The position numbers were made by a program, and so were the translations under genes. Source: Patescibacteria group bacterium (GTDB lineage Bacteria > Patescibacteriota > Minisyncoccia > Phycocordibacterales > DATDSR01). From it: DNA of 24,000 nucleotides. Numbering within the stretch: the first letter of the stretch is position 1; each line of letters begins with the position of its first letter. Under the pieces are notes generated by a model that ran no database searches, was not told the origin of the DNA, and was given only the letters and a program-made list of their open reading frames with translations. The stretch is taken from positions 11,748-35,747 of the forward strand of contig JBBTXQ010000052.1 in the NCBI GenBank assembly GCA_038062165.1, written 5' to 3'. Positions 5,849-22,461 of the stretch are shown in pieces.

Positions 5849-8320
5849 CTAATTTGTCAAGACGTTAAGCACTATCCCCGGCTTATATACAACCCGAAGA
5901 ACCTGCTTACCTTCAAGCCTCTTGGCTATAATAGGGCTAGACAGAGCCACTGTTTTAACCTCCTCCTCGCTTGAGTCACTGGACACAAATATGCTCCCGC
6001 CAATCCTGCTATTGATCTGAACTCGCAGATTTATCACATTTCCCTCTACTCCCGTTAGTTCACTCACTTGTGGCCATTTTTGTATATGGATAGAGTCAGT
6101 ATGACCCAATTGGTGCCATAATTCTTCGCAAATATGGGGTGCGAAAGGGGCAAGTAATTTTAAAAAAGTTTCTAGGTTATAGGTATTAGGTACTAGGTTT
6201 TCTAATTCCCGAGAAAGAATCATCAGCTTGCTGACAGCAGTATTGAATTTGAAGTTCTCTATATCAGAACTTATCCCTCTGATGTATTTACTTATTTTCA
6301 GATCTACGCTTTGGTTTTGAGTTTTGCGTTTTGAGTTTTGCGTTACCATCTTCCACACTCTCTCCAAGAATCTTCTGGGCCCAATTATCGCCTCATCATT
6401 CCACGCCACAGAATCTGCAAAGGGCCCCAGAAACATTTCGTACAATCTGAAGGTATCAGCTCCCCAACGCTCGATCACCTCATCAGGGTTAGCCACATTG
6501 CCCCAGCGCTTACTCATTTTGCGACCATCACTTGCGTGTATTAAACCAGTGCCGATTCTCTTTGAGAATGGCTCTATCGTACTCACTGCCCCAATATCAT
6601 AGAGAAACTTATGCCAGAAACGGGCATAGATTAAGTGCCTGGTCACATGTTCTGCGCCTCCCACGTACACATCAACCCCCGCCCAATATTTCTCAATTTT
6701 TTTGTCCACCAATACACCCTCGTTATGGGGATCCACAAAGCGCAAGTAATACCATGAACTACCGGCCCATTGGGGCATCGTGTTAGTCTCACGCCTGCCC
6801 TTGCCACCGCACTTGGGGCACTTCACGTTCACCCATTCTGGGATATCAGCGAGCGGTGACTCGCCTGTGCCAGTGGGCTCATAATGTTTAACCTCCGGCA
6901 ACTTAACAGGAAGCTCACTCTCTGGAACTGCCACTACTCCACATCCGCCAGTTGGCGGACTTCCCTTACCATCACAATGAATTAAGGGAATGGGCTCGCC
7001 CCAATATCTCTGTCGAGAGAAGACCCAATCACGCAACCTATACATCGTCACTCGTTTGGCCCATTTGTTTTCAATCACATATTCTGCGATCAGGTCGCGC
7101 AACTCTGCACCTGTTTTGCCAGATAAATTAAGTGGCTCGAGAAGGATGCCATTTTTCATATCTGAATAACACACTTCAAAATTTTCTACCCTCTTTTTTA
7201 ACTCCTGATCTTGTGGGACTAAAACAATCTTAATGGGTATATTATATTTTTTCGCAAATGCGAAATCTTGCTCGTCATGCGCAGAACACTTAATCACACC
7301 TGTCCCGTAATCTGTAACGGCAAAGTTCGCCACCCAGATTGGCAAATGGCCGTTACCAAGCGGATCGTCTAGGAATCGCCCAGTGAACACTCCTTCCAAC
7401 TCTCCTGTTTTGTATTTATCTTGTAAGCGCTTGATATTTATTTCCTCTACCTTATTTCTTATTTCTTTTTCTCCTTCTACTCCCTTTATCAAATCATCTA
7501 ATAATGCGTGATCTGGAGCAATCACAACAAATGTGTCGGCGTAACAGGCCTCGTAGTGCGCGCTGAATGTCTCAAGTTCTATTTTAGTACCTGCCTTGCC
7601 GTCAGGCAGGTCTTTAACTCTGGCCTTGAAAAGTAATCCATCCGATTTGCCAATCCACTGTCTCTGACCTTCTTTGATAAACTCCGGCCAATTAAGTGCT
7701 TCCAAATCATCCAGTAATCTATCTGCGTATTTTGTTATTTTTAGGACCCACTGTCGCATGGGCTTCTTGACCACCTGTGAGCCGCATCTCTCGCATTTCC
7801 CATTTTCAAGATCCTCATTGGCAAGTCCTGTCTGACATGACGGGCACCAGTTGATAGGCTCGTTACTCTCGTATGCCAGACCCTTTTTAAACATCTGTAA
7901 GAAGATCCACTGCGTCCATTTATAGTAATCCGGATCAGTTGTATTGATCTCGCGCGACCAGTCGTAATCAGGACCAATCAAGTTTAGTTGCGATTTGAAT
8001 CTGGCAATATTCTGCTCTACTGCTTCTCTGGGATGGATCTTGTGTTTGATAGCATAATTCTCGGCAGGCAAACCAAATGCATCCCAGCCCATCGGATGCA
8101 AAACAGAATACCCCTGCATCCGCTTCATTCGGGCGTATATATCAGTGGCTATGTGCCCTTTTAGGTGACCAACGTGCAGACCCTCACCCGAAGGATAAGG
8201 GAACTCATTCAGAACGTAAAATTTGGGTCTGTCTTGATCTTCGCTAGACTTGTATATTCCCGACTCTGCCCAAATCTTCTGCCACTTTGCCTCTATCTTT
8301 TTTGGATCATACTCGCTCAT
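5849..8320 (-). CDS. leuS: leucine--tRNA ligase
   Basis: 823 aa with the HIGH motif (PYPSGEGLHVGHLKGH), the KMSKS motif (GRKMSKRWGN), and RDWVFSRQRYWGEPIP. Confidence 0.95.
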   Translation of the reverse strand: MSEYDPKKIEAKWQKIWAESGIYKSSEDQDRPKFYVLNEFPYPSGEGLHVGHLKGHIATDIYARMKRMQGYSVLHPMGWDAFGLPAENYAIKHKIHPREAVEQNIARFKSQLNLIGPDYDWSREINTTDPDYYKWTQWIFLQMFKKGLAYESNEPINWCPSCQTGLANEDLENGKCERCGSQVVKKPMRQWVLKITKYADRLLDDLEALNWPEFIKEGQRQWIGKSDGLLFKARVKDLPDGKAGTKIELETFSAHYEACYADTFVVIAPDHALLDDLIKGVEGEKEIRNKVEEINIKRLQDKYKTGELEGVFTGRFLDDPLGNGHLPIWVANFAVTDYGTGVIKCSAHDEQDFAFAKKYNIPIKIVLVPQDQELKKRVENFEVCYSDMKNGILLEPLNLSGKTGAELRDLIAEYVIENKWAKRVTMYRLRDWVFSRQRYWGEPIPLIHCDGKGSPPTGGCGVVAVPESELPVKLPEVKHYEPTGTGESPLADIPEWVNVKCPKCGGKGRRETNTMPQWAGSSWYYLRFVDPHNEGVLVDKKIEKYWAGVDVYVGGAEHVTRHLIYARFWHKFLYDIGAVSTIEPFSKRIGTGLIHASDGRKMSKRWGNVANPDEVIERWGADTFRLYEMFLGPFADSVAWNDEAIIGPRRFLERVWKMVTQNSKRKTQNQSVDLKISKYIRGISSDIENFKFNTAVSKLMILSRELENLVPNTYNLETFLKLLAPFAPHICEELWHQLGHTDSIHIQKWPQVSELTGVEGNVINLRVQINSRIGGSIFVSSDSSEEEVKTVALSSPIIAKRLEGKQVLRVVYKPGIVLNVLTN
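6170..6197. repeat. tandem heptamer repeat (TnnTAGG x4) inside leuS
   Basis: TTCTAGG TTATAGG TATTAGG TACTAGG, translated as NLVPNTYNLE. Confidence 0.75.
6314..6341. repeat. exact 14-nt tandem duplication inside leuS
   Basis: GTTTTGAGTTTTGC x2, translated as TQNSKRKTQNQS. Confidence 0.8.
6944..6959. repeat. palindrome TCCGCCAGTTGGCGGA inside the leuS zinc knuckle
   Basis: 7-bp arms. The surrounding codons give HC-DGKGSPPTGG-CGVV where LeuRS homologues have HCxxCG. Confidence 0.65.
7590..7610. repeat. GC-rich palindrome CCTGCCTTGCCGTCAGGCAGG (in leuS)
   Basis: 20/21 identical to the mnmA copy. It encodes DLPDGKAGT in the same frame. Confidence 0.9.
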
Positions 8321-8986: not shown

Positions 8987-9889
8987 TCAAATCCTGAATT
9001 CGATTACGTCTCCGTCTTTGACTATGTATTCTTTGCCTTCGGTACGCACTAGGCCCAATTCTCGCGCTTTGGCATAACTACCGCTTTTCATTAAATCATC
9101 ATACGCCACTACTTCTGCGCGAATGAATTTGTCGCGAAAATCTGTGTGGATGGCCGCGCCCGCTTCGGGCGCAGTACTGCCCGCTGGGATAGTCCATGCT
9201 CGCGTCTCATCCTCACCAGTAGTAAAGTAGCTAATTAAGCCTAGCAATTCGTAACTTGCTTTTATCAGCTTATCCAGATCCTCGCCAGAAGTGGCATCAA
9301 CATGGACAGAAACCTGATTTCCATTTTTACTTAGGATCCCGGATCCCGAGTTAGGTAGTACGTTATCTCCGACATGAGTGACATTTAATACATACAGAAC
9401 AGGTTTAGTGGCGAGCAAGTTCAGCTTCTCTTCTTCTTTACCCTTCTCCTTCATTTTAGCTTTGTGTTTTTCGACTACATCAAGATCAGCGAGCTCCAAC
9501 TCTGTCTTGATCACACCAATATCACTTTCGGGATCAAGTTTATTATCTACATGAATAATAGTAGAGTCGTCGAAGCAACGCACGACGTGAGCAATAGCAT
9601 CTACCTCGCGAATGTGTGACAAGAATTGATTGCCCAGGCCTTCGCCCTTGCTCGCGCCCCTCACAAGTCCGGCGATATCTACGAACTCGATCGCCGCCGG
9701 AACAATTTTGCGGGATGAACTAAACTCTGCGAGTTTAGCAACCCGCGTATCTGGAACTGCCACGACCCCAACAGATGGATCAATCGTGCAAAAAGGATAA
9801 TTCTCCATGGGCACCCCCTTCTTGGTAAGCGCGTTGAAAAGCGTCGACTTTCCCACATTCGGCAGACCCACAATTCCTATCTTAAGCAT
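8987..9889 (-). CDS. ychF: ribosome-binding ATPase YchF (short form)
   Basis: The start is moved to the ATG at 9889 ([22 protein letters not shown], the G1 motif). It has DIAGLV and a C-terminal TGS-like segment ([37 protein letters not shown]). The upstream part of the track ORF is not protein-like. Confidence 0.85.
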
Positions 9890-9892
9890 AGG

Positions 9893-9920
9893 TTGACAAT
9901 TTAACACATGAGAGTAGTTT
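9893..9920 (+). promoter_or_regulatory. sigma-70-like promoter for the small plus-strand gene
   Basis: TTGACA (9893-9898), a 16-nt spacer, then TAGTTT (9915-9920). SD GGGAGG at 9928-9933 lies 8 nt before the ATG at 9942. Confidence 0.45.
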
Positions 9921-9941
9921 TGCGAATGGGAGGAACACAAA

Positions 9942-10202
9942 ATGGCATGGCTACTGAAAAGTGACAAAAAACACATGCACAAGCATGCAGAGATGAATGA
10001 GGAGAAGAATGGCTGGCAGTGCAAGAAGACCAAAAAGCCGATCAACACAGTGCGCACGGGCCGGAGCATCCACGTGGCCGGCTTCTCGGGCGGATTCGGT
10101 GAGGTACGGCAGGTTGACCACCTTTGGTGCACCGGCTGCGACACACAGCCCGAGATCCGCTACGGCGAGCCGATCCAGGAGAACGAGCTCGTCGAGATCT
10201 AA
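9942..10202 (+). CDS. small orphan protein (86 aa), Lys-rich N-terminus, three Cys (C..CxxC)
   Basis: Supported by a promoter, an SD and a strong intrinsic terminator. Amino-acid composition is balanced, unlike the overlapping frames. It is visibly GC-richer than its flanks. Confidence 0.55.
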
Positions 10203-10213
10203 CTCGAGCATTA

Positions 10214-10241
10214 CCGGAAGGACGGTCCTTCCGGTTTTTTT
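10214..10241 (+). terminator. intrinsic terminator, probably bidirectional with murA
   Basis: CCGGAAGG-ACGGT-CCTTCCGG followed by T7. The murA stop (10240-10242) abuts the T-run. Confidence 0.7.
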
Positions 10242-12311: not shown

Positions 12312-12402
12312 GCATTAATCGTACTTCAGACGTTAACAATGTGAAAGGAAGTTATCAACAATTATTCATACCAAAATACTGAGTCGACTGCTATAAAAGA
12401 TA

Positions 12403-12431
12403 GCACCCCATCGCGCGTTGCGACAGGGTGC
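12403..12431 (-). terminator. hairpin downstream of the GC-rich small ORF
   Basis: On the minus strand, GCACCC-TG-TCGC-AACGC-GCGA-TG-GGGTGC followed by TATCTTTTAT. The U-tract is weak. Confidence 0.4.
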
Positions 12432-12451
12432 TCGAATCTCGCCTTCGGGCG

Positions 12452-12823
12452 TCACTTGCAAGGCGGTTCTGGCCGCACTGGGCTAAGCAGCCGCCACGGC
12501 GGGCACTGTGCGCACTCAACCGACCCGTCCCTGAACACTCGGCACTTGATCGGAGTCGGCCGATTGAGGCAAGTGGCGATGACAAGTGTGTCACTCGTTC
12601 GCACTACGTCAGGCAGAGTCCCGCAGTTGAGCCCAGCGCTCATGCCTTCGCGATCCTCCGTGGCCCGCAGGAGTCCTCGTGCTATCTTGCACTCGCCCTC
12701 GAAGATTACGGCCTTCTCGGGCGCCATGGCCTTGATCGCCCTGGGCACCGAGGGAATCACAAGAAACACGGCACTAGGACCCAACAGAGCCAGCGCGACC
12801 CTGAACTGATTGCTCGTACGCAT
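12452..12823 (-). CDS. small GC-rich orphan protein (123 aa) with a signal-peptide-like N-terminus and 7 Cys
   Basis: SD AGGAGG (12831-12836) lies 7 nt before the ATG. The N-terminus MRTSNQFRVALALLGPSAVFLVIPSVPRAIKA is signal-like. Only this frame among the overlapping ORFs has balanced composition. Confidence 0.45.
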   Translation of the reverse strand: MRTSNQFRVALALLGPSAVFLVIPSVPRAIKAMAPEKAVIFEGECKIARGLLRATEDREGMSAGLNCGTLPDVVRTSDTLVIATCLNRPTPIKCRVFRDGSVECAQCPPWRLLSPVRPEPPCK

Positions 12824-12889
12824 TGTGAGACCTCCTTCAGATATAATATGAACTACAATATCAAACTTGTCCAGTCAAGACGGCCTTAG

Positions 12890-20615: not shown

Positions 20616-21296
20616 CTATAGAGCGACGAAGCTTGAGGCAACCATCTTGCCACCTTGCGTAATAGGCACATCTAGGTGGTAATCGAACTGCTTGTCGCCA
20701 TCGTCGTTGTGAATTACAACAAAATAAGTTTTGCCACTGATTGTATTGCGAAGGACTTCAATCTGACCAGAAGAGTAAGAACCCGGATCGAATCTCTGAG
20801 CACCAAGCATCCAACCGGGATTGCCCGACTCATCTGCATCGTGCACCACCGCCCAACCACTCGTGCTAATCGTAATAGCATCTAGATTAACTATATTGCC
20901 TGCGGGCTGATTGCTCACGCTCACAGAATTAGCGCCTGTAACATTTGCAGTCACAGTTTGGCTACTTGCATTAGTAACAGTGCCCTGTACCTGACCACCT
21001 AAATTCAAACCACCAGTTACGCCTGTTGCCTCTGGGCTAGTCTCATCAGTCCCTGTCTGGTTCGTGTCGCTCGTATTCACATCATCTGTATTTGGAGCTT
21101 CTGTTTTTGGTGCGGTAACGTATGAGGCAATAATCCAGATAGCCAAGATTGTGATCACTAAATAAAGCCAATGTTCTTTTCTCATGCCAGTTTTATTAGC
21201 ACTATTAATCTCCTTGACATTACTATTAAAAGTTTGCGTTCTAGAATCCTTCCCAGGATTCTGTGCTTGGTTTGTATTCATGGCCGCAATATACAC
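20616..21296 (-). CDS. membrane-anchored extracytoplasmic protein with a Thr/Asn/Ser-rich linker and a C-terminal beta-rich domain
   Basis: 226 aa with a single TM helix ([18 protein letters not shown]) and a low-complexity linker. The start could be the internal Met at 21281. Confidence 0.65.
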
Positions 21297-21311
21297 CTAA
21301 TCTGAGTAAAT

Positions 21312-21663
21312 GAAAAGGGGTCCTCTGCTTACGCTTTGGTACCCCCGCGCTTCGGCCCTCGAAAGGGCTTGGCACTTGTGGTCTCAGCTTGCGCCGAGTT
21401 TTTTCTCCTCCCACCGTGGAGGGTCGTTTTCCTGTTGGACCCCGAAGGGACAGGAAAGCACGTGATCCGAAGGACACCCCTCGGTGTTAGAGCCTTGCGA
21501 CTCCAACTGCTACCCGCCGTTGGAACAGCGAGTGCTACCCAGAGGAAATCCTCCAGACTTCCGGTCCGAAGGCCTGAAGCGTGCACGACCTTCCCAAGGT
21601 CACCGCGGATTGCCTTGCGACTCTCCGAAGTGCCTTGGGAATCTTCTCTTGCGTCCTGATCCT
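21312..21663 (-). ncRNA. large GC-rich structured RNA candidate, class unknown
   Basis: Read on the minus strand it has several UUCG loops (for example CCC-UUCG-GGG and GCCCU-UUCG-AGGGC) and GCAA loops (GAGUC-GCAA-GGCUC, CUCGGC-GCAA-GCUGAG). It has long helices UUCCCAAGG/CCUUGGGAA and UUUCCUGU/ACAGGAAA. A promoter lies upstream and a hairpin plus U-tract at the 3' end. Overlapping ORFs on both strands are not protein-like. Confidence 0.6.
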
Positions 21664-21669
21664 AGAGTT

Positions 21670-21697
21670 ATCTTACTTCCCTCAAAATTCGTGTCAA
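21670..21697 (-). promoter_or_regulatory. sigma-70-like promoter for the structured RNA
   Basis: On the minus strand: TTGACA (21697-21692), a 16-nt spacer, then TAAGAT (21675-21670). Confidence 0.4.
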
Positions 21698-21783
21698 TAC
21701 CCGTAAAATAGACAAACTTCTCAAATGAGTGCAAAACCTGTGGATTCACTGGGGACAAGCTTTCTGCAGAGGTTACCCTCCGC

Positions 21784-21812
21784 TTGCGTTATTTTGCAGG
21801 TTATGATATAAT
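21784..21812 (+). promoter_or_regulatory. sigma-70-like promoter for the 21916-22362 gene
   Basis: TTGCGT (21784-21789), a 17-nt spacer, then consensus TATAAT (21807-21812). Confidence 0.5.
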
Positions 21813-21817
21813 TGCTT

Positions 21818-21915
21818 TAGATTCCTTCTAGTAAGCCGCGGCGGCTGAACGAGACGGAGCACTCTCCGTCGGCAATCCGCCGGGACCTCTCGAGCAATCT
21901 CGAAAGGAGCAAAGT
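21818..21915 (+). promoter_or_regulatory. structured GC-rich 5' leader
   Basis: CGGCGG(21839-44)..CCGCCG(21877-82) encloses the perfect hairpin GACGGAG-CACT-CTCCGTC (21853-21870). A second hairpin, TCGAG-CAAT-CTCGA, abuts the SD AAGGAG. Confidence 0.4.
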
Positions 21916-22362
21916 ATGAAGATACTGTTTGCACTGATCTTCACATTCGCAAACCTTGCCTTATTCATGGTAACGGGAAGTAAAGAGCTACTTCCATTTC
22001 TTACGGGTATGACTGGTTGCATTGCAATCACTCTGCATTGGTCAATTGCGCGAGACAGCAAAGACAAACTGAAAAAGGTAGAGGCAGAACTAGACGATGA
22101 ACGTAAGTTTCGCAGACTAGTTCTTGGCCTTTGGGATGGAGCGGGAGCACGCGTTGTGATAGAGGAAGGAGCCAAAACTGTCTTCTGGATGGAGCAGGAG
22201 GCTATCCAAGCGAGCAAGATCAGTAGTGACTACTTGCAGAAGAAGCGCGACGAGGCGGCTGACAACTTTACCCAGCTCGTTGCGGTGATCAACAAGATTA
22301 CAAATGGTCACTGGGTTGACAGACTCAACCACTACCGCGAGATGTTTGCAAAGAAGGAGTAA
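21916..22362 (+). CDS. hypothetical protein with two N-terminal TM helices and a charged helical C-terminal region
   Basis: 148 aa. An SD (AAGGAG) lies 6 nt before the ATG and a terminator hairpin follows. Confidence 0.65.
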   Translation: MKILFALIFTFANLALFMVTGSKELLPFLTGMTGCIAITLHWSIARDSKDKLKKVEAELDDERKFRRLVLGLWDGAGARVVIEEGAKTVFWMEQEAIQASKISSDYLQKKRDEAADNFTQLVAVINKITNGHWVDRLNHYREMFAKKE

Positions 22363-22369
22363 CTCACTG

Positions 22370-22409
22370 CAGGGCGATGGACACCAGTTCCTCGCCCTGA
22401 CTTCTTTTC
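22370..22409 (+). terminator. intrinsic terminator
   Basis: CAGGGCGA (22370-77) pairs with TCGCCCTG (22392-99), followed by ACTTCTTTTCATT. A second long hairpin (GAATCT..ATGTCCG/CGGACAT..AGATTC, 22422-22455) lies next to the uvrB stop. Confidence 0.5.
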
Positions 22410-22461
22410 ATTATAGTCCCTGAATCTATGATGTCCGACCGGACATTTGAGATTCAGATTC

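Follow-up and report, generated by a model that had tools for sequence, protein, structure and literature searches.

The question raised by this locus is whether a GC-rich spacer upstream of a DUF7282 gene in a groundwater bacterium contains a gene for a structured RNA, and what kind of RNA this would be. The spacer lies in a 24-kb window (the whole stretch of DNA that was analyzed) from a metagenome-assembled genome of the Patescibacteria/Paceibacterota (Paceibacteria, within the candidate phyla radiation, CPR) from Hainich groundwater. Read along the minus strand, the gene order is uvrB, a divergent plus-strand open reading frame (ORF) of 148 aa, the candidate RNA (here called the window RNA), the membrane-anchored DUF7282 gene, uvrA, uvrC, and ddl. 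We favor, with rather better than even confidence, the interpretation that positions 21663-21313 of the minus strand are a stand-alone gene for a highly structured, lineage-specific noncoding RNA (ncRNA) of about 350 nt, the locus and promoter of which are inherited, the body of which is turning over fast, and which probably acts in trans. We infer its expression from the DNA sequence, and the promoter, the terminator, and the folds given below are predictions.

Predicted fold and transcription signals of the window RNA

The GC content is 0.575-0.59 across positions 21300-21599 relative to 0.375-0.475 in the flanks, and overlapping ORFs are present on both strands (21336-21659, plus strand, 107 aa; 21329-21586, minus strand, 85 aa), as the first-pass annotation of this DNA had pointed out. 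The predicted minimum free energy (MFE) of the minus strand (366 nt) was -166.7 kcal/mol, relative to a mean of -131.3 kcal/mol for dinucleotide-shuffled sequences, which gave a z of -6.1, and of -6.3 in a second independent run. The plus strand of the same stretch gave -150 kcal/mol and a z of -3.8 to -5.4, and coding controls of the same length had z values of -0.5 to -3.3. The stretch thus resembles structured ncRNAs in general, in that its folding energy goes beyond that of composition-matched shuffles and is stronger on one strand. Nearly all of the helices in the MFE structure had pair probabilities of 0.95-1.00.

The distribution of tetraloop motifs of the form C(UUCG/GNRA)G was similarly asymmetric, with 10 on the minus strand and 2 on the plus strand, relative to 1.75 +/- 1.24 in shuffled sequences, none of which (0 of 2000) reached 10. 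Although the RNA stretch makes up 1.5% of the window, it contains 4 of the 11 minus-strand CUUCGG motifs and 4 of the 16 CGCAAG motifs of the window. The minus-strand orientation first proposed for this RNA is borne out by both the energies and these counts. The tetraloop hairpins described at the same time held up in part: three of the four CGCAAG motifs are predicted loops, as is a CGUAAG motif, whereas the several UUCG hairpins were reduced to one, because a single CUUCGG motif of the four (CCC-UUCG-GGG) forms a hairpin loop in the predicted fold and the other three are copies of a repeated heptamer, CUUCGGA, inside long-range helices. The remaining structural features of that annotation were recovered. 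The 12-nt sequence GAGUCGCAAGGC is present twice (21623-21612 and 21503-21492), an exact repeat of that length being found in 2 of 500 dinucleotide shuffles; the helices of 8-9 bp, UUCCCAAGG/CCUUGGGAA (21641-21633 / 21599-21591) and UUUCCUGU/ACAGGAAA (21457-21450 / 21435-21428), are in the MFE structure with probabilities of 0.95-0.99; and the TTGACA-16-TAAGAT promoter and the terminator hairpin were identified as well. The parts of the predicted transcription unit are as follows.

21731-21754, minus strand: upstream box CCCCAGnGnATCCACAGGTTnTGC, with a core, TCCACAGGTT, 37 nt upstream of the -35 hexamer (from alignments of relatives)
21670-21697, minus strand: predicted sigma-70-type promoter, TTGACA (21697-21692), 16-nt spacer, TAAGAT (21675-21670); 10 of 12 positions in a promoter scan
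21313-21663, minus strand: predicted transcript of about 350 nt, with the start placed 7 nt after the -10 hexamer and the end at the U-tract
21653-21663, minus strand: predicted single-stranded, purine-rich 5' leader AGGAUCAGGAC, with two exposed AGGA; unpaired in the MFE and centroid structures
21583-21652, minus strand: Domain 1, a predicted long 5' hairpin composed of UUCCCAAGG/CCUUGGGAA, CACU/GGUG, CGGA/UCCG, and GUC-GCAA-GGC; helix probabilities 0.99-1.00
21348-21581, minus strand: Domain 2, a predicted multi-branched core; pair probabilities 0.85-1.00
21313-21346, minus strand: intrinsic-terminator-like hairpin GGGGGU..CC..GC-GUAA-GC..GG..ACCCCU (21346-21316) followed by UUUUCAUUU; dG -14.3 kcal/mol, probabilities 0.96-0.99

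The upstream box may be a site for a regulator or for DNA bending. The two transcript ends, 21663 and 21313, are placements made from these signals, and the UUUUCAUUU tract after the terminator hairpin reaches 21308. A simple terminator scan missed the hairpin because of its long interior. Purine-rich leaders open the window RNA and two of the counterpart RNAs described below (L004 and L040) alike.

The predicted fold consists of the two domains plus the terminator, with 11 unpaired nt at the 5' end, a maximum pair span of 233 of 359 nt, and 5' and 3' ends that are not paired together. Domain 1 contains the first copy of GAGUCGCAAGGC (21623-21612) and a pair of direct repeats of 19 nt (21606-21624 and 21626-21644) that are 79% identical. 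Domain 2 is closed by a 16-bp long-range helix (21581-21565 with 21363-21348) and contains an 11-bp long-range helix, two 9-bp hairpins, one of which includes the second GAGUCGCAAGGC copy (21503-21492), the UUUCCUGU...ACAGGAAA hairpin with its CCC-UUCG-GGG tip, and the hairpins CCUCC...GGAGG and CUCGGC-GCAA-GCUGAG. An alternative fold, in which GGUCGU-GCAC pairs with GUGC...ACGACC, is just 3.7 kcal/mol costlier than the MFE structure, and the modeled long-range topology is therefore tentative, the two folds being near-isoenergetic.

Conservation of the promoter region and of the locus

Orthologous loci were fetched from the near relatives that could be reached, using DUF7282, UvrA, and the 148-aa ORF as anchors in genome and metagenome scans plus 12 contigs; the resulting loci or contigs are designated by L-numbers. 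The UvrA proteins of the nearest genomes are 82-87% identical, and the DUF7282 proteins 44-54% identical, to those of the window. It was found that the spacer between uvrB and the DUF7282 gene holds a GC-rich segment of 230-400 nt in five further lineages, namely L004, L014 (identical in L022 and L038), L027, L040, and L161, and that a perfect TTGACA (-35), a -10 hexamer of the form TAnnnT, and a terminator accompany each of these segments. The hexamers are separated by 16-17 nt in all five and in L037r. The folding z in the promoter-to-terminator direction was -6.1 for L040, -4.8 for L004, and -6.1 for L037r, which puts these three on a par with the window RNA, and the values of L040 and L004 were stronger in that direction than in the other.

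Farther upstream, alignments showed that the core TCCACAGGTT of the upstream box is invariant in the window, L040, L161, and L004, and always exactly 37 nt upstream of TTGACA. The 68 nt upstream are 71% identical between the window and L040 and 57% identical between the window and L004, whereas the RNA bodies are 30-38% identical. The promoter-upstream region is clearly orthologous in these four, judging by the aligned sequences.

The RNAs of L040 (1966-2364) and L161 (~530-796) are homologous to each other over their 3' two-thirds (nhmmer, 5e-26). In the common part, which has 58 consensus pairs, 5 pairs are changed on both sides, 5 on one side, and 0 are broken; as controls, slid partners gave 0 compensatory changes, and 18 of 500 shuffles reached the observed score. 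Therefore, at least this branch of the locus appears to be under selection for RNA structure. L040 has an extra domain of about 130 nt, with six hairpins inside one stem, that is missing in L161. A tandem duplication, AGAUCGU-A-AGAUCGU, adjoins this domain insertion.

Several results weigh against the interpretation that we favor. First, about half of the close relatives (8 lineages: L007, L010, L015, L019/L035, L031/L037, L039, L023/L158, and L013) have no such RNA at the locus, the spacer holding instead the reverse ORF alone, toxin-antitoxin-like genes, another cargo, or nothing; thus, the RNA is either dispensable or relocates. Second, the counterparts in L014 and L027 are GC-rich but not over-structured (z of -1.6 and -2.0). 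Third, no homologue of the window RNA was found among the counterparts by blastn with a word size of 7, by nhmmer, or by an ungapped motif search, and so its helices are those of a single-sequence prediction. Smith-Waterman alignments of the window RNA with the counterparts gave z values of 0-2 with body identity no better than chance, there was no shared k-mer or motif beyond the terminator tail, and the tree-edit distances between MFE structures equaled the distances to shuffles. A covariance model built from L040 and L161 found nothing in the window, and gave weak, terminator-like matches in L004 and L014 (E ~0.1). The conserved homologues by which the first-pass annotation had proposed to judge the RNA are thus lacking for the window RNA in BLAST and nhmmer searches, which leave positional counterparts that share the promoter but not the body. 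Finally, the GGA and other motifs of the window RNA are not in hairpin loops, unlike those of the known sponge RNAs.

Faint resemblances were seen but are not claimed as homology. Collinear identities between the window RNA and L040 (UCGUGCAC, GUGC-hairpin-AACGACC, CCUCCACG, and GUCGCAAGGC) had no statistical support and were not counted as evidence; enforcing the helices that they imply in the window RNA costs just 3.7 kcal/mol. The other resemblance is a 45-nt block shared at 69% with L004.

One of the relatives without an RNA in the uvrB-DUF7282 spacer, L037, has a candidate RNA elsewhere. It is a GC-rich segment of 335 nt in the uvrA/uvrC interval (7173-7507, minus strand of the locus) with a TTGACA-17-TATAGT promoter, a terminator, and a z of -6.1, and its first 20 nt match the leader of the L161 RNA (GGUCUCAAAGAUUGGU...) at 17 positions. 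This leader match suggests that the RNA gene can relocate.

The same observations bear on the possibility that the segment is an insertion, rich in GC and in hairpins, at a hot spot of variation, whether a selfish or decaying element or DNA from a GC-richer donor, that is perhaps transcribed but has no function for the organism. The spacer is indeed highly variable among close relatives, its contents ranging from RNA-like bodies through the reverse ORF, toxin-antitoxin-like genes, and an ORF flanked by 22-bp inverted repeats to nothing; the RNA bodies are unalignable despite the similarity of the UvrA proteins; L040 has an entire 130-nt domain that L161 lacks; and the window has another GC-rich island at 12312-12889. 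However, a perfect TTGACA promoter and a terminator are kept at every occupied locus, and the upstream box in the window, L040, L161, and L004. The extreme stability and the tetraloop enrichment would be unexpected from decay, and the changes between L040 and L161 are compensatory. There was also no second copy of any part of the RNA within the 24-kb window, which led us to reject an origin as a REP-like dispersed repeat, and no match to the RNA stretch by blastn in phage and plasmid collections. Searching viral contigs for the upstream-box pattern yielded nothing but chance matches, the pattern being too weak. We regard an insertion of this kind as unlikely, though it is the weightiest of the alternatives to the interpretation that we favor.

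A further reading of the spacer is that it is a promoter-anchored hypervariable RNA locus, in which the promoter and box are inherited and the body is remodeled or replaced until species with UvrA proteins 82-87% identical share no detectable sequence or fold. This is a speculative proposal that we think rather unlikely to be correct. If it were true, the pattern would indicate that a structured RNA is under diversifying selection, conflict with phages and the relations between an episymbiont and its host being two conceivable settings; we know of no description of such a pattern for a bacterial structured RNA.

Two other sequence features were observed in RNA-less loci. In L013, perfect 22-bp inverted repeats (TTGTCAACCTCACCACGATCGT at 2280-2301 and ACGATCGTGGTGAGGTTGACAA at 2886-2907) surround an ORF segment of about 600 bp in the uvrB-DUF7282 spacer, which may be a small mobile or invertible element. 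In L010 (3810-3850 and 3920-4000) and in the spacers of L031, L037, and L039, a palindrome, CCCCGTTAGAAAC...TCTAACGGGG, is present between divergent promoters, and some four copies of CCCGTTAGAA surround the start of DUF7282 in L010; the palindrome and repeats look like an operator for some regulator.

Relationship of the RNA to the DUF7282 gene

The RNA lies directly upstream of the DUF7282 gene, and the first-pass annotation had considered that it might be an unusually large cis-leader of that gene. The relevant features downstream of the terminator are as follows.

21288-21293, minus strand: predicted -10 box TATATT, within GGTGTATATT, of a separate DUF7282 promoter (scan: TTTTCA-17-TATATT at 21316-21288)
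20616-21281, minus strand: membrane-anchored DUF7282 gene (Pfam PF23951, E 2.9e-13)

In the case of a leader or attenuator, transcription would begin from the TTGACA promoter, and whether it continues into DUF7282 would be controlled at the terminator. Consistent with this, the RNA has the same orientation as the gene, there are about 30 nt from the U-tract to the annotated start, the U-tract is interrupted (UUUUCAUUU) such that some read-through is plausible, and at the uvrB locus the RNA is always directly upstream of DUF7282. On the other hand, every related locus, with or without an RNA, has a -10 box of the form GGTGTAnAnT 40-60 nt ahead of the start of DUF7282, and in the window this box (GGTGTATATT) falls between the RNA terminator and the gene. 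An RNA is missing upstream of about half of the DUF7282 orthologues, the L037 candidate is at another locus and on the other strand, and there was no match to a ligand-binding or T-box-type family. With the transcript ends as predicted, the RNA and the gene would not be on the same transcript, the gene would have an independent promoter, and the two are not co-inherited. Because the conserved -10 box lies after the terminator and is kept where the RNA is absent, the RNA is probably an independent transcription unit and not a required leader of DUF7282, and we consider the leader alternative quite improbable.

The annotated start of the DUF7282 gene may itself be incorrect. All 19 of 19 DUF7282 homologues begin at an invariant methionine aligned with M33 (ATG at 21185) of the window protein, and therefore the true start is probably at 21185 and the annotated 32-aa N-terminal extension spurious. 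A start at M33 would leave a 5' untranslated region (UTR) of about 100 nt after the GGTGTATATT box.

Comparison with known RNA classes and coding potential

A scan of the whole window with Rfam 15 at gathering thresholds matched only five tRNAs. When the 601 nt from 21200 to 21800 were scanned at E<=10 with lax filters, two chance matches were obtained, to a viral miRNA and a human lncRNA. The scans were extended at gathering thresholds to 16 related loci and at E<=10 to the L040 RNA and a neighboring UTR element, and yielded only tRNAs and chance matches. The covariance models of the large ncRNAs OLE, GOLLD, ROOL, raiA, and HEARO had no match in the window, in the region at E<=10, or in the 16 related loci.

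A strongly diverged housekeeping RNA (RNase P, 6S, signal recognition particle [SRP], or transfer-messenger RNA [tmRNA]) missed by the Rfam models had to be considered, since the size, GC-richness, and separate promoter of the window RNA fit an RNase P RNA. In 10 of 35 CPR genomes, the RNase P RNAs were below the Rfam thresholds and had missing helices (Lui et al. 2021, PMC8172020), and therefore the signatures of RNase P, SRP, and tmRNA were tested explicitly. The RNase P models RF00010 and RF00011 had no match at gathering thresholds in the window or at E<=10 in 21200-21800, nor did the 6S/Ms1, SRP, and tmRNA models match, and ARAGORN found 5 tRNAs and 0 tmRNA. The RNase P motifs P4/CR-I (GAGGAAAGUCC), CR-IV, and CR-V (ACAGAAnCCGGCUUA), the SRP helix-8 motif, and the tmRNA 3'-end motif scored at shuffle level in the six RNAs (the window RNA and five counterparts). 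The predicted fold is not a 6S-like rod with paired ends and a central bubble. An essential RNA would moreover be expected to be alignable between species with UvrA proteins 82-87% identical, and the window RNA could not be aligned by sequence, nhmmer, or covariance model. Taken together, these results make a housekeeping RNA very improbable, and they agree with the view in the first-pass annotation that the RNA belongs to no known class.

The possibility that the region encodes a small protein, on either strand, arises from the 107-aa (plus strand) and 85-aa (minus strand) ORFs that span it. In GC-rich sequence, however, such ORFs are to be expected on both strands. There is no ATG in the RNA stretch on the minus strand, from which the promoter would drive transcription, the overlapping ORFs had no Pfam match, and tblastx among the positional counterparts detected no similarity. 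A HMMER search with the 107-aa ORF against 1.84 billion protein representatives gave 0 matches, and no gene was called in the RNA region in the source contigs. The ORF products had been judged not to be protein-like at the outset, and we give almost no credence to a coding function.

The window RNA is therefore presented as a new candidate among the large structured bacterial ncRNAs that falls, by these models, in no described family.

Proposed mode of action and comparison with other systems

In the mechanism that we propose, the RNA would be transcribed from its own near-consensus sigma-70 promoter below the conserved upstream box and end at its own intrinsic terminator. It would be an accessory, lineage-specific RNA with an inherited locus, promoter, and upstream box, the transcribed body of which would change very rapidly, in part as whole hairpin domains are gained and lost, while staying highly structured. 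Most likely it would work in trans: as a folded molecule that is abundant and resists nucleases, it would bind a protein partner or titrate it away, serving as a scaffold, sponge, or decoy, with the exposed purine-rich 5' leader and the repeats (CUUCGGA three times, GAGUCGCAAGGC twice) as possible contact sites. Regulation of the neighboring gene in cis is considered less likely. The suggestion of trans action and protein binding, which is based on the independent transcription unit, the exposed leader, and the repeated motifs, is made with low confidence, because neither a sponge architecture with GGA in loops nor a 6S-like rod is predicted.

The window RNA resembles OLE, GOLLD, ROOL, raiA, and HEARO in being a stand-alone RNA of several hundred nt that is GC-richer than the genome, with many helices and GNRA loops, its own (predicted) transcription signals, and no coding capacity. 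The difference is that these RNAs are conserved in sequence and structure over many genomes with abundant covariation, whereas the window RNA matches none of their covariance models and no homologue of it could be detected even among the closest relatives. The 6S and Ms1 RNAs are abundant, stand-alone RNAs with sigma-70-type promoters and a primary sequence that differs widely from lineage to lineage, and they function in trans by binding a protein, a likeness that is conjectural on the side of the window RNA. However, 6S is a rod of ~180 nt with a central bubble and paired ends, whereas the window RNA is a multi-domain RNA of 350 nt with an unpaired 5' leader.

The sponge RNAs CsrB, RsmY, and RsmZ also have their own promoter with an upstream box, a rho-independent terminator, repeated short motifs, and a fast turnover between genera. 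They differ in having many GGA motifs in hairpin loops: GGA is mildly enriched in the window RNA (14 copies relative to 8.2 +/- 2.4 expected), all but two of these copies, which lie in the 5' leader, are paired, and no hairpin loop of the MFE structure contains one. Riboswitch and attenuator leaders, like the window RNA, are structured, located directly upstream of and co-oriented with a gene, and have a terminator hairpin at the end, whereas the window RNA is much larger, is followed by a separate gene promoter after its terminator, is absent from many orthologues, and has no aptamer match.

The genomes of CPR bacteria are tiny and gene-dense, and so a 350-nt noncoding gene with a near-consensus promoter would be an expensive feature. 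To our knowledge, almost nothing is known of the regulatory or structural RNAs of this group beyond the diverged housekeeping RNAs. If real, the window RNA would add a new large structured RNA to the short CPR list, and the comparative pattern would give a tractable bacterial case of a positionally conserved, rapidly evolving structured RNA. There is also a practical warning, in that such genes would be invisible to both homology-based RNA annotation and covariation-based discovery. The diverged RNase P RNAs of the CPR (Lui et al. 2021, PMC8172020) are the nearest comparison in terms of host group, and are similar in size and GC content and likewise below the Rfam gathering thresholds; the window RNA differs from them in having no sub-threshold RF00010 or RF00011 match at E<=10 and no P4/CR-I/CR-V signature, and in not being conserved in close relatives, half of which lack it at the locus.

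A strain about 98% identical to that of the window is represented by L160 (ENA ERZ27247830 k141_114217), a contig of 634 bp that aligned to window positions 21824-22457 (the 148-aa ORF and its UTR) and ends about 160 nt short of the RNA. The copy of the RNA in this strain would be the best first source of within-species variation.

Neighboring genes and other features of the window

The divergent neighbor is outside the RNA gene and marks the upstream limit of its locus.

21819-22362, plus strand: 148-aa ORF with two transmembrane segments (21916-22362, from the ORF listing), preceded by a conserved 95-nt 5' UTR

The genes neighboring the RNA had no match in PADLOC. The UTR of the divergent ORF (21819-21915, plus strand, ~95 nt) is itself structured, and is preceded by a promoter, TTGCGT-17-TATAAT, at 21784-21812 of the plus strand. 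Its predicted fold has four hairpins in a junction, three of them with GCAAUC-like loops, and in the last hairpin the Shine-Dalgarno sequence GAAAGGAG has its AGG paired with a CCU. The UTR is kept in L007, L010, L015, and L040, with 6 compensatory pairs in 5 sequences, a conservation better than that of the window RNA, and no match to it was found in Rfam at E<=10. Possible roles are those of a translational riboswitch, a thermometer, or a leader that binds a protein.

Elsewhere in the window, two regions were considered as RNA candidates, 12312-12889 (GC-rich) and 9890-10240 (z of -3.3), and were rejected since both hold small protein genes. The first, on the minus strand, has a GC content of 53-56% in 300-nt windows and its own TTGACT promoter and terminator. 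Its ORF (12452-12823, 62% GC) has a Shine-Dalgarno sequence, and the 123-aa product, which carries a signal peptide and several cysteines, had no Pfam or PADLOC match; the island looks like acquired DNA. Because this island is GC-rich yet protein-coding, GC-richness alone is not a marker of RNA here. In the second region, the ychF ORF in the mechanical ORF list (8987-10144) is over-extended, the real start being near 9888. The 350 nt upstream of ychF contain a plus-strand ORF of 86 aa (9942-10202) with paired cysteines, which ends at a bidirectional terminator hairpin at ~10205-10240. The five tRNA genes of the window, between 11572 and 15642, are scattered among housekeeping genes, and are those for tRNA-Ala (GGC, CGC, and UGC), tRNA-Val(CAC), and tRNA-Pro(CGG).

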